Positions 5,392 through 30,860 of a DNA stretch of 64,000 nt are shown piece by piece. Under the pieces are notes generated by a model. That model was not told where the DNA came from, ran no database searches, and worked only from the letters and a program-made list of their open reading frames with translations. Within the stretch, counting starts at the first letter, position 1. Each line of letters begins with the position of its first letter. Source of the stretch: Ruditapes philippinarum (taxonomy: Eukaryota); contig NW_026851615.1 in NCBI RefSeq assembly GCF_026571515.1, positions 310,001-374,000 on the forward strand, read 5' to 3'. The translations under genes and the position numbers were made by a program.

Positions 5392-6534
5392 AACACTTTT
5401 GTTCTCAAGTTTTTTTTCGTCTTCATTTTAATCGATCTGTACTCTGGTTTAAAAAAAATAGTATCAAGTGAACAACGCACTATTGCCGGGCTACATGTTT
5501 ATCGACAGTAGAAAAATAGAACGTAAACAGAATGGCATCTATTAATGCACAATGAAACCGCCAAAATCTGGCGCGGAAAAAATTGTTTATAGATGCTTAA
5601 TTCGTAATTATCTCGTATCTTGTTCATTTAAGTACATAAGTATATATTTATTGTGAATATATGTAGCAGAGAGACAAAGTCGTGTTAGTTTTGTACTGAA
5701 AGTGTACGGAAGGTGAAAAAAGAAGGTCAAATGTGGAATGGGAATAGTTCAATTGGATAACCCATTACCTCCGGACCTCCCAACAATGTACAGAACTCAA
5801 TGACTATATATACTGTATTGTAAAGTTTGTAGCTTTTAACCAACTTTTAATTTACATAAATGTTCTTGTAATTTTATCCTGCAAAAAAAGTCAATGCATC
5901 TATAGCATTTCATAAATGCATACGTTCACATGGATAATCGACTGCAAAGTAATTGGTCAATTTTACAATTGTGCCGAGCTCAATCTCATACTTTTAATGC
6001 AGTTCTATAAATATAGAATATAAATATAGACATACAACATACAGATCTAGTACACTACGGGAAAGCATGCATGCATGTATTCGTCACTGGCCGTTTTGAC
6101 AGAAATAACGGCTTTTTTTTTAAGAATCAGCTTCTTTCTTAAGATTTATATTTTTACCGTAAAATAAGTCCTACGGGTCCTACGTGTGTATAATATATAA
6201 AAAAATATTAGAAAATGTGGACAAACATCGATGAGAGCTCTGGTACTAAATGAACAAAATACTGTGACAATTATCTATAAACATAGATCAATCTTTCAGC
6301 CAGCCCATATTCTTTTTCATGTCAACGGAATCTATTGAGAAAAACAACCGGACACTTTTAGCAACGACTTTTTGTTTGATTTCCATGCTGTTTATGTACA
6401 AAGAAATAAACAAATGACATGTATCTATAATATTATCAGCTGCGTACATATACATCGTTTTCCACATCAAATAGCTCATCCCGCTCCGTTTATCCTCATT
6501 ATACACAATTTCCCGATAGGAATGACGTGTTGTC

Positions 6535-6762: not shown

Positions 6763-6827
6763 CGCCCAATGTGGGGCCCGAACCCACGACCCCGAGATTA
6801 AGAGTCTCGTGCTCTACCGACTGCGCT
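6763..6827 (-). pseudogene. tRNA-Lys(CTT) 3' portion, split by the Dada-like insertion (5' end lies at 11350-11362)
   Basis: Matches the intact copy at 12843-12915 up to the A box. The remaining GCCCGGCTAGC and upstream spacer resume at 11350-11362. Confidence 0.93.
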
Positions 6828-8847
6828 TGAAGATCATCTTTGTCCCAGGCAAAGATACAGCTGCTTAGCCTCCGCATGAACAATCCGCTTGCCGTACCAC
6901 AGCAGTCACGGTCAACATAGATGACCTCTGGTGGTGGATGTCCTGCATCACTAAACCTCTTCATCAGACCCTGCAATGAATACCCATTTTATGTTGTTGT
7001 ATCTTTTTTCTTTTTTTTAAATATATTTGACAGTAATTGGCATATTATTTGGCATGACTTGCAAATCGTTATAGTCTTCGGACTAAATACTTACAAATCT
7101 CTAAAAGATATGTCTTTTTGAAACATCTAGGACCGAGAGCTAGAGACCTTTTATGGTATGAGGATTTTATGTTATATGCTTCAAAAATAATCAGAGCATA
7201 ACTGTAATATCATACCTTTGCCATCCTCATGAGCCCAAATCGACCTTCACCAGCAGTCAAAACTGACATCAGTACTTGGCCGTACTCATTACCCACATTG
7301 GTCGCCCATTCTGCTGTGCCCGTTGTTGGTCCTGATAATTTTTTAGTGATCTTTTTTGTTGAATCAACTTTGAGAATACGACCAAACACTGATGTTATGT
7401 TCGCCTTCACCTCTTGAAGTCTCTGCAGGACATCCTGAATGTAGACCTGCATCAGCCATCTGTATTCAGGTACACTTGCCATGACTGGTGGCTCGATAAA
7501 ATGTGGTGCCTCAACCAGCCCTGATGATGCAGCTCCTGCTACAGTCTTGCATGCTGACAGGTACTGTATGGTCTTCTGGTACCACTCTGTGCTATGTTGT
7601 TCTTGAAGCTTTTTGTGGATCTGGGATGCACTATTTCCCAAACCACATTGCCTCTTTTTCCATTCGTTCTGCTGCAGCCAACAGTTCTTGGTCATATGTG
7701 CTGGACAGAACCTCTGTAGTTGCTGAAATAGATAATAGTCATATTAAATTATACTATTAGTGTGTTTTTCATCTGAGTTATTTTCTATTAATGTTCTTAT
7801 TATAATTTTTCTATGATGAAAGTACAACAAAACAACACAAAATTTAAAAAGTTTTCTTTCCAGCACATTTCTAAATATAAAAGCAACATGTGGCTGTGAG
7901 ATCCTTGTTAACCCCTAAGCCCCTTATACTAGGATTGTCATTGAATATGGCAATATTGAAATGTCATCGATATTTACCATTCAATGCAATATCTATACAC
8001 AATATATGTACACTCACACAATTATTGAATTTTTTTCAAGACATTGCATTTTTTATAGAGATATTGGTATAAATATGTGAGGCAGATATAAACTGACTCA
8101 TTTATAAAAAGGTAAGGTATTGGATGCAATTAATAGCACTTTAGTAAAATTAAGAATGTAGTAAAAAAATACCTTGTACTTTGACAGTTGGCTTTTTCCT
8201 GTTTTCTTTTTCTGTACTGCCTCAACTCCCTCTGGGAACAGTTTTAAATAGTTCCTGAGTGCCATCTTGTTTAAATAATTTGCTGAAGATGAAGTGGGCT
8301 CTTTTTTCTGAATCAGCAGCAAGGTACGCAGCATAGCCCAATGCATTTGAGGCAAGCCACTGGAAGGTTTCACCCCTATATATAGTGTTAAAGTAACAGT
8401 TTAATAATTCAATCATATAACATATATTTATACACATTGCATTATAATAATAATAATAATCAGAGCACTAAAATATATATTTTATCTATGATAAAAAAGA
8501 TTAAAAAAAAGCTATTTCTATCTGCTATTGATAACCTTTATTAAGTTAAGACCCCATCCCCCCCCCCCCCACCCCCCAAAAAAGGAAATAGTTTCAGTTA
8601 TTCTTGCCTGAATATCCCAAACTGAATTCGGAACTGCCCCAGCAAATGTTTTTTATTCGAAACATCACCACCAACACGCCGTACAGAAACCTCGGCCTCG
8701 GCCCGCACTTTGATAGCAGACATTGGTGGCACTAGCCTGGGATGGCACATAAACACGCTGTCGCTGTTCAAGCCTAACTCTCTTGGCATTGTCTGTATCT
8801 GCCAAACTGGGGCCTGCCTGTGTCTGCTTAAATACCGGTTCCAACAT
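6828..8847 (-). pseudogene. Dada-like DDE transposase pseudogene; exons ~8848-8608, 8375-8173, 7722-7216, 6970-6828
   Basis: LLGQFRIQFGIFR|GETFQWLASNALGY (in-frame GC-AG splice); GLGNSASQIHKKLQEQH; ILKVDSTKKITKKLSG; WATNVGNEYGQVLMSVLTAGEG; MAK|GLMKRF (phase-0 GT-AG splice); PPPEVIYVDRDCCG; FMRRLSSCIFAWD. Frameshifts near 8790, 8305 and 7650. The C-terminus is lost. Confidence 0.85.
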
Positions 8848-10362
8848 CCTGAAGTAAAACCAGTCTCACTTGAAATATTATCAAATGTTTGTATTCATTA
8901 GAAAAAAAAAGAATGCCAAAAGTACTAGGGGGGAGTATATTTGGGTTAAGTTATATTGTATAGATGATATCTAATTAGTGTAGATTTAATACCAAATTTA
9001 TTGAACAAGTTGAATAAAAGCAAAGTAAGCAAGCCTCTGGCAAATTAAATTGTTAAAAATCAATAAGTTCAATAAATTTAGTATTGATTCTATACAAATA
9101 TTACATTCTATTTATCACATATCAAATATAACAATTGTTTACAGTTTATTTAAATATATTAAAATGTGACCTTTTCGAAAACCTAGCTAAACACCGTTTT
9201 CCGGTACGTTAGGGATTTAGCTCTGGGGAATTATACCAAATAAAGTACATAACACAGTTACATGACATTTCTATCATTATTTTACCGTTTAAGGTGAAAG
9301 AAATTGATAATGATTTACTTAAACGAATTACCATCATAACATATTATTATAAATTATCACGATTAAAATTAGGTTTGAAAAGTTTTGAGTACGAATCATT
9401 ACATTATTTTGCTTATTTAGTGAAAATATATCTTTAATTTTAATCATTTGGTCTACTGTTATAAAAGGAATCATTGACAAACTAATGAAAGTTTTCTTCA
9501 AGAGCTTCATTCATAATCATTGCTATTTACTTATCAAAATAACAATTTGACAACATAATTATTATCTTTATAAACAATCAATTGTAATATATTGTACTTA
9601 CCAGAGAAATGGGTATAAAACGACTAAATATTTACTTAAAAGTTTTAAATTTTAAGGCTCTATACAAGTGACAGAAATGAAGCCTTAAATAACAAAGTTC
9701 TGTAAAGAAATATGTGTTGCATAACTATAAGTTAAACATAATACATAATCTTAACCGAGTTTTATGTCACAGTCATATGGTGACTTACAGCTTAACTGGT
9801 TGAAGACATCAGGTGCCCCTATGTGCATTATTTCTGGGAACAGGCACCATAGGCATAATAGTACAGCGATTTTTTTCTCTGAATTGTGAATGGGCCCGGT
9901 ACCATAAAAATTGTAAAAAAAAGCGACATTTCTTAACAAATTGTGAACTCATGGAAGAAATCATGGTTGGCTAAACACATTTTAAGATAAACAAAGCACA
10001 ACAGGCAAAATTTACCAGCATTATTATGTCTAAACCGCCCTATTGAAGATTGTGTCTACCATGTTTAGACCCATACTAGGTAGAAAAGAGGCGAGTGAAT
10101 TGGTGTTTGTATGTGAGGAACATTGTAGGGGTGTGTGACGAACATTGTAGAACTATACATTGAACATTGTATAAGTATGCATTGGACATTGTAAAAACAG
10201 TAAATTATGCATGTGTTGCTTGTTTGTTAATATTGAAAGTTTTTATATAAAATAAATAATAAAAAATATCATCGTTAAACTTTTGTTGTTGTTTTTGTTG
10301 TAAATTTTTTTTTATTTCTTGAAAAGTGTTAACATTTTAAAGCAAAATAAATAATAAAAAAA

Positions 10363-10469
10363 TGGGGCCGGGTTGACCAGAAATAACATTGATTTGGGGC
10401 CGGGTTGACCAATTTGGGGTCGGGCTAACTTGGGGCCGGGTTGACTTGGGGCCGGGTTGACTTGTACCG
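10363..10469. repeat. Five GGGGCCGGGTTGAC-type repeats ending TTGTACCG; probable subterminal repeats of a nested DNA-transposon fragment
   Basis: Repeats seen directly in the first intron region of the Dada-like element. The matching other end was not established. Confidence 0.55.
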
Positions 10470-11199
10470 CTTAATTATACATAATAACATTATTAATGGC
10501 TTAAATAATCAAAATTGTGAAATTTCATCAGAATTGTGAACGGGTCCGTCGGACCCAGTCTGAAAATTGTGAAGGTCCTTTTGTGATTGTGAAAGGGTCC
10601 CTTATTGGGTACCACTTATATAGGGAAAAAATCGCTGTACTAGTAGAACCATAGACATTCCATGATAAGCTTGCTACATGTATATTGCTTCCTCCTATTA
10701 AGGAATCCAAACTTCTTGGTGGAAGTTGAACCTACAGCAGTTAGGGAAAATATTGGTAACAAAGTGAAGTTCATCCAAGCAATCTCCAAGAAAGAACCCA
10801 TACATGTATGTCTATTTTCCAATTATTTTCATACAATATATTAAAGAATATACTAGAAAATTGAAATATGAAATTAATCTACGGTACATATTCTATTTTT
10901 ATGGGGGTATGGGTGGTGGTCTGAAAGATACCATGGCCTTAAACTATAAATGTATTTGCTAGTATAAAACAGATCAAATTCGTTTGTCTCACTTCATCCG
11001 AATAAGTTTATCCGAAATGTATCATGGTCAGTTTTTCTTACAATCTCCGTAATATCGTAAATAATATAAACTTGGACACTATTATAGAGTGGAATCTTAC
11101 CTATTATTTCCAAAAAAAGGTTAAACACCAGCTATAAAATTAGATACGTAGAGTAAACGAAAGTAAAAATTAAAAGTCTGCTGATACTATAGTACATAT

Positions 11200-11322
11200 C
11201 CGCCATTTTCTGATTCTCGGTAATCTCTTGTTCACTGATTGGTTAATTTTCGGTAATTTTCGGTCATATTCGGTAGGGCTTAACCAATGAGATGATGGGA
11301 TTCTACCGAAAATCTACCGAAA
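11200..11322 (-). promoter_or_regulatory. Putative promoter/subterminal region of the Dada-like element (YY1-like AAAATGGCGG, inverted CCAAT boxes, TCGGTA repeats)
   Basis: CCGCCATTTT at 11200. ATTGGTTAA/TTAACCAAT inverted pair at 11238-11246 and 11280-11288. Splice donor AG|GTAAG at 11100 on the minus strand. Confidence 0.5.
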
Positions 11323-24779: not shown

Positions 24780-24854
24780 TCCGGGGTGGTCTAGTGGTTA
24801 GGATTCCCGGTTTTTTTACCCAGGGGCCCCGGGGTTTGATTCCGGGACCGGGAA
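24780..24854 (+). tRNA. tRNA-Glu copy within the low-quality sequence (true status unknown)
   Basis: Recognisable GTGGTCTAGTGGTTAGGATTC at the expected array position, but with homopolymer-type errors. Confidence 0.6.
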
Positions 24855-25006
24855 AACACTTTTTTCTTTAAGTTTGTAAAATTTCGTCTTCATTTTAAAA
24901 CGATCTGGTTCCCGGTTTAAAAAAAATAGTATCAAATTTGGGGAAAGGTCCACCCTTTTCCCTCAAACTTGGGCCCAACATTTCCTTTTATAGGGAGAAA
25001 AAGTAA

Positions 25007-25057
25007 AGCCAAGGGGGGCTCAAACCCACGCCCCCAGTTTAAAATCTCGTGCCGGGC
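25007..25057 (-). pseudogene. tRNA-Lys pseudogene with the same 18-nt deletion as the 14432 copy
   Basis: Junction TCTCGTGCCGGGC is identical to that at 14474-14486. The rest is degraded. Confidence 0.8.
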
Positions 25058-29084: not shown

Positions 29085-30860
29085 CAAGATATGTTTGTAA
29101 AACAAGTATGCCCCCTATCAGCAGCCAATTAGTCATGTGAAAAGGTTATTATGCATGACTTCTGACCCAGTGATCAAACAATTAATAAGGGTTATCAAGT
29201 ATCTACTGGTCATGACCTTAACCTTTGACCCAAAACTCAATAGGGGTCATCTGCTGGTCACGACCAATCATCATACAAAGTTTGAAGTTCCTAGGCCTAA
29301 GTGTTTTTAGTTAATTGATCGGAAACCGTTTTAACATACAAGGTCAATGTGACCTTGACCTTTGACCCCTTGACCCCAAAATCAATAGGTCATCTGCTGG
29401 TCATGACCAATCACCATACCATGTTTGAAGTTCCTAGGCCAAAGGGTTCTTAAGTTATTGATTTGAAAGCATTTTACCTACAAGGTCAATGTGACCTTGC
29501 CCTTTGACCCCTTAACCCCAATATCAATAGGGGTCATCTACTGGTCATGACCAATCACCATACCAAGTTTGTAGTTCCTAGGCCTAAGGGTTCTTCAGTT
29601 ATTGATCGGAAACCGTTTTTACCTAAGAGGTAAATGTGACCTTGACCTTTGACCCCTTGACCCCAAAATCAATAGGGGTCATCTACTGATCATGACCAAT
29701 CACCATATCAAGTTTGAAGTCCTTAGGCCTAAGGGTTCTTTCGTTATTGATCGGAAACCGTTTTTACCTTCAAAGTCAATGTGACCTTGACCTTTGACCC
29801 CTTAACCCCAAAATCAATAGGGGTCATCTGCTGGTCATGACCAATCACCATACCAAGTTTGAAGTTCCTAGGCCTAAGGTTTCTTTCATTATTGATCGGA
29901 AATCGTTTTTACCTACAAGGTCAATGTGACCTTGACCTTTGATCCCTTAACCCCAAAATCAATAGGGGTCATCTGCTGATCATGACCAATCACCATACCA
30001 AGTTTGAAGTTCCTATGCCAAAGGGTTCTTTTGTTAATGATCAGAAACCGTTTTTACCCAAGAGGTCAATGTGACCTTGACCTTTGACCCCTTGACCCCA
30101 AAATCAATAGGGGTCATCTACTGATCATGACCAATCACCATACCAAGTTTGAAGTTCCTAGGCCTTAAAGTTCTTTAGTTATTGATCAGAAACCGTTATT
30201 GCTTACAAGGTCAATGTGACCTTGACCTTTGACCCCTTGACCCCAAAATCAATAGGGGTCATCTACTGATCATGACCAATCACCATACCAAGTTTGAAGT
30301 TCCTAGGCCTAAAAGTTCTTTAGTTATTGATTGGAAACCGTTTTCATTTACAAGGTCAATGTGACCTTGACCTTTGACCCCTTGACCCCAAAATCAATAG
30401 GGATCATCTACTGATAATGACCAATCACCATACCAAGTTTGAAGTTCCTAGGCCTTAAAGTTCTTTAGTTATTGATCGGAAACCGTTTTTGTTTACAAGG
30501 TCAATGTGACCTTGACCTTTGACCCTTTGATCCCAAAATCAATAGGGGTCATCTACTGGTCATGACCAATCATCATACCAAATTTGAAGTTCCTAAGCCT
30601 TAAGGTTCTTTAGTTATTGATCGGAAACCGTTTTTGCTTACAAGGTCAATGTGACCTTGACCTTTGACCCCTTGACCCCAAAATCAATAGGGGTCATCTA
30701 CTGGTCATGACCAATCACCATACCAAGTTTGAAGTTCCTAGGCCTAAGGGTTCTTTAGTTATCACTCGGAAACCATTTGGTCTACGGACCGACGGACCGA
30801 CGGACCGACGGACCGACAAGTGCAAAGCAATATACCCCCTTTTTTTCGAAATGGGGGCAT
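29085..30860. mobile_element. HINE-like (Helentron-associated, pearl/DTC84-type) non-autonomous element with ~11 x 145-bp core repeats
   Basis: Removing it restores LINE codons HNCN|NYGNRLL. Inserted at AA/TT. Subterminal inverted repeats TATGCCCCC (29107) and GGGGGCATA (30853), a terminal hairpin, and a GACG/GACC microsatellite at 30786-30818. Confidence 0.85.
29200..30776. repeat. Tandem array, 145-bp unit
   Basis: AGGTCAATGTGACCTTGACCTTTGACC recurs at 29482, 29627, 29772, 29917, 30062, 30207, 30352, 30497 and 30642. Confidence 0.97.

Follow-up and report, generated by a model that had tools for sequence, protein, structure and literature searches.

A decayed Dada transposon in a tRNA-Lys gene of Ruditapes philippinarum and the family-specific subterminal boxes of its relatives

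The elements closest to the one described here are the tRNA-targeting Dada transposons of fish (Kojima 2022, PMC8869645). According to the text of that paper, Dada-tK, -tY, -tN, -tR and -tS insert at tRNA nt 8-13 (the A box) with 6-bp hexamers, and Dada-tY has the same orientation as the tRNA; in the tRNA-targeting families the hexamer is replaced on insertion, terminal inverted repeats are absent and the 5′ end is CCAAT-rich. That the ends share a motif with the target is, in its core, an idea published in 2013 for the inverted repeats that lie sub-terminally in Dada-U6 and Dada-U1 (Kojima and Jurka, PMC3706591), and the texts of both papers ascribe site finding to ‘primary sequence recognition’. 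An insert in the 1.4-Gb genome of the clam Ruditapes philippinarum resembles the fish tRNA-targeting elements in the features named for them. It differs from the fish Dada-tK entries, as displayed, which have no TCGGTAGA repeats and have other terminal sequences; the replaced hexamer of the clam element is TAGCGC. Neither TCGGTAGA nor TCTACCGA occurs in the three fish Dada-tK entries of the sequence file, where six matches lie elsewhere and line breaks may hide about 1 in 10.

The window, i.e. the whole stretch of 64,000 nucleotides that was analysed, carries an array of tRNA-Glu and tRNA-Lys(CTT) units. In one of the Lys genes a 4.5-kb insert (6829-11349, on the strand of the tRNA) interrupts the sequence at nt 8-13; the features of the locus are:

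6763..6822, minus strand: 3′ part (nt 14-73) of tRNA-Lys(CTT), with D-loop TCGGTAGA at 6813-6820, compared with the intact copy at 12843-12915
6823..6828, minus strand: deletion junction AAGCGC, where the hexamer on the target side meets an internal coding site
6829..11349, minus strand: decayed 3′-truncated Dada DNA transposon, family A, target tRNA-Lys
6829..6985, minus strand: transposase coding piece with the second catalytic D (YVDRD)
7222..7653, minus strand: transposase coding piece that matches Pfam DUF6729, has the first catalytic D and shares 68% identity with full-length family B
8152..8805, minus strand: two N-terminal coding exons, frameshifted, kept in four other Dada families
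10008..10481, no strand assigned: unrelated high-copy repeat within the element (40 scored of 4267 candidates)
11329..11339, minus strand: box 1, a single in-register look-alike of the target, +11..+21 counted from the junction, identical to tRNA-Lys at 7-8 of 12 positions
11350..11355, minus strand: junction hexamer TAGCGC at tRNA nt 8-13, in place of the target's TAGCTC
11356..11362, minus strand: 5′ acceptor strand (nt 1-7) of the interrupted tRNA-Lys

Undeleted copies (contig C8160) read AAGCTC at the left junction site and then coding sequence, and contigs from four studies run on in coding sequence at 6825; the left hexamer is therefore a deletion junction. We considered it as a true target site duplication (TSD) and rejected this; the true 3′ end of the element is lost. 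The 111 bases that include DxxH are absent at 6886/6887, and the window copy is a dead element. The exons at 8152..8805 make up a candidate DNA-binding region. A second family A 5′ end in the genome sits in tRNA-Lys(TTT). The 3′ end of family A was found neither with three sequence patterns nor around the C8160 copy; one of these patterns gave 19 matches, of which four were Dada 3′ junctions (one B, one eMet and two iMet, families described below) and the rest were SINE-like or chance, and a further pattern search gave six, two of them non-Dada. The one 2.5-kb locus from a metagenome scan, with coding sequence only, was left out of the analysis.

Other parts of the window are also disturbed. 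The Lys units at 5484, 14481, 25051 and 26661 are broken, with one breakpoint at the edge of the Dada target hexamer; the breaks are three distinct lesions (14481 and 25051 have the same one), and the pattern suggests scars of transposase cutting or excision. A tandem array of 10.7 copies of a 145-bp unit occupies 29225-30778, and homopolymer-rich stretches at 16450-17500 and 24600-25050, which include a garbled array unit, probably represent low-quality assembly.

The features that define Dada elements in the texts of PMC3706591 and PMC8869645 fit the insert. As to a DDE transposase with DxxH after the second D, both D motifs remain in the window copy, DxxH is deleted and the E is truncated; all four motifs (D, D, DxxH and E) stand in one 542-aa frame of family B, to which identity is 66-68%. 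CCCC (N-terminal) and CCHC (C-terminal) zinc-finger motifs were seen by eye in the family B frames and are not retained in the window copy. The insertion site is fixed within a multicopy small RNA gene, with tRNA-Lys nt 8-13 at both window junctions. The TSD of 6-7 bp, sometimes replaced, is seen as TAGCGC at either side of the full-length family B element and as TGGCGC at either side of the iMet element. The lack of terminal inverted repeats shows in the first 10 bases, which differ between the two ends of B, the iMet element and the U6 family. These features, together with a U6-inserted relative at 54% identity, assign the insert to the Dada superfamily as a decayed DNA transposon. Its use of tRNA-Lys as target may be independent of that by fish Dada-tK.

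Close to the 5′ junction the element carries a cluster of short repeats, below called box 2, interleaved with CCAAT boxes. With + positions counted inward from the junction hexamer, the order is:

11200..11209, minus strand: YY1-like motif AAAATGGCGG (+142), at the same position in the iMet family and reversed in the B and U6 families
11217..11223, plus strand: box 2, inverted copy (+127)
11238..11246, minus strand: CCAAT box (+108), at the same position in family B
11250..11276, plus strand: box 2, three inverted copies with 10-bp spacing (+94, +84 and +74; the +84 position is taken from the window sequence itself)
11280..11288, plus strand: CCAAT box facing the first (+62), with the same position and flanks in the U6 family
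11302..11320, minus strand: box 2, two direct copies TCGGTAGA (+41 and +30)

The label YY1 for AAAATGGCGG and the label NF-Y for the CCAAT boxes are presumptive. An earlier note on this DNA, made from the sequence alone, had reported these repeats and proposed that one transposase specificity recognizes both the element end and the target. All its repeat coordinates are right by direct read-out of the window: the 8-mer TCTACCGA occurs at 11302-11309 and 11313-11320, TCGGT starts at 11217, 11250, 11260 and 11270, and the 9-bp inverted pair is ATTGGTTAA (11238-11246) and TTAACCAAT (11280-11288). The 8-mer is complete, however, in the two direct copies alone (11302 and 11313); in the four inverted ones 5-7 of 8 positions match. 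The 8-mer also adjoins the insertion site in the interrupted tRNA-Lys, at 6813, and recurs in two further Lys genes (12893 and 26652). The six TCGGT/ACCGA copies in 106 bp compare with 0.07 expected from the window's own density (Poisson P ∼2e-10, or ∼1e-7 once any 5-mer is allowed for). The 9-bp pair was rejected as a terminal or hairpin feature, as it is explained by the two facing CCAAT boxes, and the 6-bp direct repeat at the 5′ junction is TAGCGC (+ strand 11350-11355), not the target's TAGCTC. In two raw RNA runs, of each of which 4-5% was scanned, no reads fell on 10900-11336, a result that has no bearing on the promoter.

Relatives in the same genome made it possible to follow the repeats beyond one copy. 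Lys family B has a full-length copy (C1731) and a second 5′ end (C15353); the initiator-Met (iMet) family a full-length copy (C15800) and a second 3′ end (C9757); the elongator-Met (eMet) family a 3′ end (C6701); and the U6 family copies C8989 and C8414. Motif counts leave out the C8414 U6 3′ junction (short deletion) as well as C9810, C11374, C4517, C12876, C12270, C12402, C13422 and C4315 (ends not found). In a transposase tree, a rough projection of broken copies used for grouping only, the Lys families form one lineage and the Met families another.

The box 2 layout is common to families B, iMet and U6, which carry the variants TCGATAG, GTGGTAG and TTGGAAC, respectively, and the 5′ ends share the positions of boxes, CCAAT and YY1-like motifs across families. 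Conservation among copies, which the earlier note had put forward as a check, was confirmed: two family A copies are identical at +15..+88, and at the +127 site of another individual's family A copy a 10-bp insertion adds a box 2 unit. Presence of the motif at the 3′ end is borne out in relatives, on which this test rests since the 3′ end of family A itself was not found: in each of the four families for which a 3′ end was found, a single family-specific box 2 copy lies at exactly +29, with no CCAAT found beside it. TCGGTAGA matches in the U6 family were rejected as end boxes, being internal. The same variant is present at both ends in 3/3 families with both ends; in the two full-length copies the ends are 21 and 35 kb apart. 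Such concerted, family-specific change points to a protein of the element itself as the reader of box 2; a host factor is disfavoured because it would not change specificity family by family in one genome.

The same relatives hold other features of note. A tRNA-like sequence is present on the transposase strand in the 3′ region of three Dada families, U6, iMet and eMet (L049:2888-2957, L052:4915-4984, L036:5967-6040 on the minus strand, and L082:1021-1098; Rfam tRNA, 28-49 bits). Its acceptor and T stems are paired and its anticodon arm is odd; in three copies it lies 400-700 bp before the element end. There were no unrelated matches in 0.9 Mb of examined DNA and none was seen in family B; ARAGORN at lowered thresholds gave only noise. 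No such element-internal sequence is described in the texts of PMC3706591 and PMC8869645; it may be a Pol III gene carried by the element. In the eMet family a Twister-P1 ribozyme-like match (32.8 bits, E 8e-4, below the gathering score) precedes it by about 200 bp, at L082:763-827. Locus L040 (C9810:30300-37300) contains several tandem, partly broken iMet-type transposase cores.

The earlier note had missed box 1, the in-register copy of the target at 11329-11339. In terms of the 2013 definition of a sub-terminal target motif, the box 2 repeats fall short, the direct copies lying at +30 and +41 as against +3 in the target, and it is box 1, at +11..+21, that fits. Compared in register with its own target over +11..+22, box 1 of the window has 7/12 and 8/12 identities to two Lys genes; the values are 8/12 and 12/12 for the 5′ and 3′ ends of B, 7/12 for each of the iMet and eMet 3′ ends, and 8/12 and 7/12 for the U6 family ends against U6, while the iMet 5′ end is without box 1 (1/12). 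The match thus holds in 11 of 12 ends (7-12 of 12 positions) and in seven of eight distinct family ends (P from 0.01 to 3e-8 each), for a scoring interval picked after the first ends had been seen. Read by eye, the displayed 5′ ends of fish Dada-tY and -tS likewise have this box in register, and that of tN is off by one base; tracking of the target is not strict, because the displayed fish tK, tL, tN and tR share one common 3′ box whatever the target.

For box 1 of the window copy, tRNA-Met(e) and tRNA-Lys are equally good matches (8/12 each). All four Lys 5′ junctions read TAGCGC (window 11350-11355; L133, L136 and L137; a Lys-family junction is also at L074:1504-1509). Intact Lys genes have TAGCTC, and TAGCGC is the native hexamer of the elongator tRNA-Met gene, which hints that an ancestor of the Lys families targeted Met.

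How far box 2 reads the target can be judged from the five families. Own target is the best match in four of them (A 7/7, B 6/7, iMet 6/7 and U6 7/7, with a 5/7 tie for eMet), with null probabilities of 0.003-0.006, 0.09-0.14, 0.07, 0.012 and 0.84, respectively, and a combined Fisher P of 0.013 without the discovery lineage and 7e-4 with it; copy numbers are small and the families related, the Lys and the Met families each being one lineage, so that independent events are few. The match to U6 is at +28, one base off the +29 register, and in the fish Dada-U6 5′ ends displayed at least three exact GTTCCA were counted by eye in 7 of 22, the others having drifted. This gives modest support to the end-target idea of the earlier note, and a specificity for TCGGTAGA that reads both repeats and D-loop, determining the target jointly with box 1, is a possibility that we rate at somewhat less than even. 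Where the target is a tRNA, the match falls outside the register (+2/+3) and is opposite in orientation to the 3′-end box; family B, with the same target, reads TCGATAGA, i.e. A at one D-loop G, in every near-full copy; and the three fish Dada-tK entries, as displayed, have no such motif.

Natural decoys tell against the prediction that the motif marks the targetable tRNAs. TSD plus TCGGTAGAG, with A at position 30, occurs at 979 sites of the genome, 68 of them Lys-type; the first 100 listed are mostly one SINE-like repeat. None of the five Lys-family 5′ ends found by element sequence is in the ∼910 perfect non-Lys sites: four are in tRNA-Lys and one in a spacer 850 bp from a Lys gene. Box 2 is therefore insufficient to predict targets, although decoys may be avoided for chromatin reasons. 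Box 1 does set Lys genes apart, that of the Lys-family ends having only 3-4 of 12 identities to the SINE-type decoy. In ∼900 copies the tRNA-derived SINE-like repeat itself has the Dada-tK hexamer and D-loop in perfect form, and the copies often follow one another in tandem at 250-bp intervals. The spacer end, a third Lys-type 5′ end (L144, C14854:111395-111617), is 73% identical to family B and has a non-tRNA flank with an intact tRNA-Lys 850 bp away.

Repeats interleaved with CCAAT at a fixed 9-nt spacing in A and B and with 10-bp periodicity, like the tandem motif-plus-CCAAT units of the fish Dada 5′ ends displayed, would also be expected of host transcription-factor sites in the transposase promoter that resemble the D-loop by chance. 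We regard this as unlikely, as a box 2 copy stands at +29 of 3′ ends where no CCAAT was found, and the motif varies by family inside one genome. Still less probable is that the ends are leftovers of target DNA once captured and then multiplied by slippage, without a binding role at present. The 3′ end of B does resemble an inverted tRNA-Lys, combining its 12/12 box 1 with an inverted B-box-like stretch (seen 60-250 bp inside the 3′ end, at L074:1420-1500 in B, and in many fish Dada families as displayed), so that part of the end-target likeness may be captured DNA; over 19 bases the 5′ end of the U6 family almost duplicates U6, and junction hexamers are carried unchanged, as is TAGCGC. Yet box 2 keeps an exact position while changing in concert at both ends, and other individuals have 12 substitutions in 10978-11181 and none listed in 11204-11349 (the listing omits differences near contig ends).

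Element anatomy, conservation across families and box-target matches were observed directly. On these grounds we favour, as a somewhat better than even proposition, the reading that the TCGGTA-type repeats are family-specific subterminal boxes that bind the transposase within a predicted CCAAT promoter, the choice of target being set mainly by box 1. Both ends would present box 1 at +11..+21 in the geometry of the target, each end mimicking the downstream half of the target there; as the geometry is the same, one transposase surface could read ends and target alike. The downstream target bases are the conserved ones in the published account, as its text has it, which fits such mimicry. Box 2 arrays would load extra transposase subunits and, set among promoter motifs as they are, might act to repress transcription of the element itself; that the match of box 2 to the D-loop is an auxiliary contact, and not a determinant of target range, has about even odds. 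More tentatively, and with the balance leaning against it, Dada ends may carry a target code of two boxes, one in register at +11..+21 and one repeated through the promoter, that co-evolve with the DNA-binding surfaces of the transposase and with the target gene. If so, one could tell the target of any Dada family by reading its ends, and alter that target through exchange of the matching domains.

Among other transposons, hAT and P elements have several short subterminal transposase-binding repeats that are asymmetric between the ends and overlap the promoter, and in this they are like box 2. We know of no case in which such hAT or P repeats match a fixed insertion target. For Dada-U6 and Dada-U1 the text of PMC3706591 reports a single motif of 7-9 bp at each end, for families that target snRNA genes, and has neither tRNA-targeting counterparts nor a second, repeated, family-specific box; a search of sources other than Repbase Reports and subscription journals found no further literature on Dada ends. 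Relative to the texts of these papers, whose figures and supplements may show the boxes, what is new is the anatomy of two boxes, its presence in families that target tRNA genes, and the control offered by natural decoys. With two defined boxes, their natural variants in five families of a single genome and ∼900 decoys, binding and swap experiments become feasible, with a bearing on the use of Dada for site-specific gene insertion.
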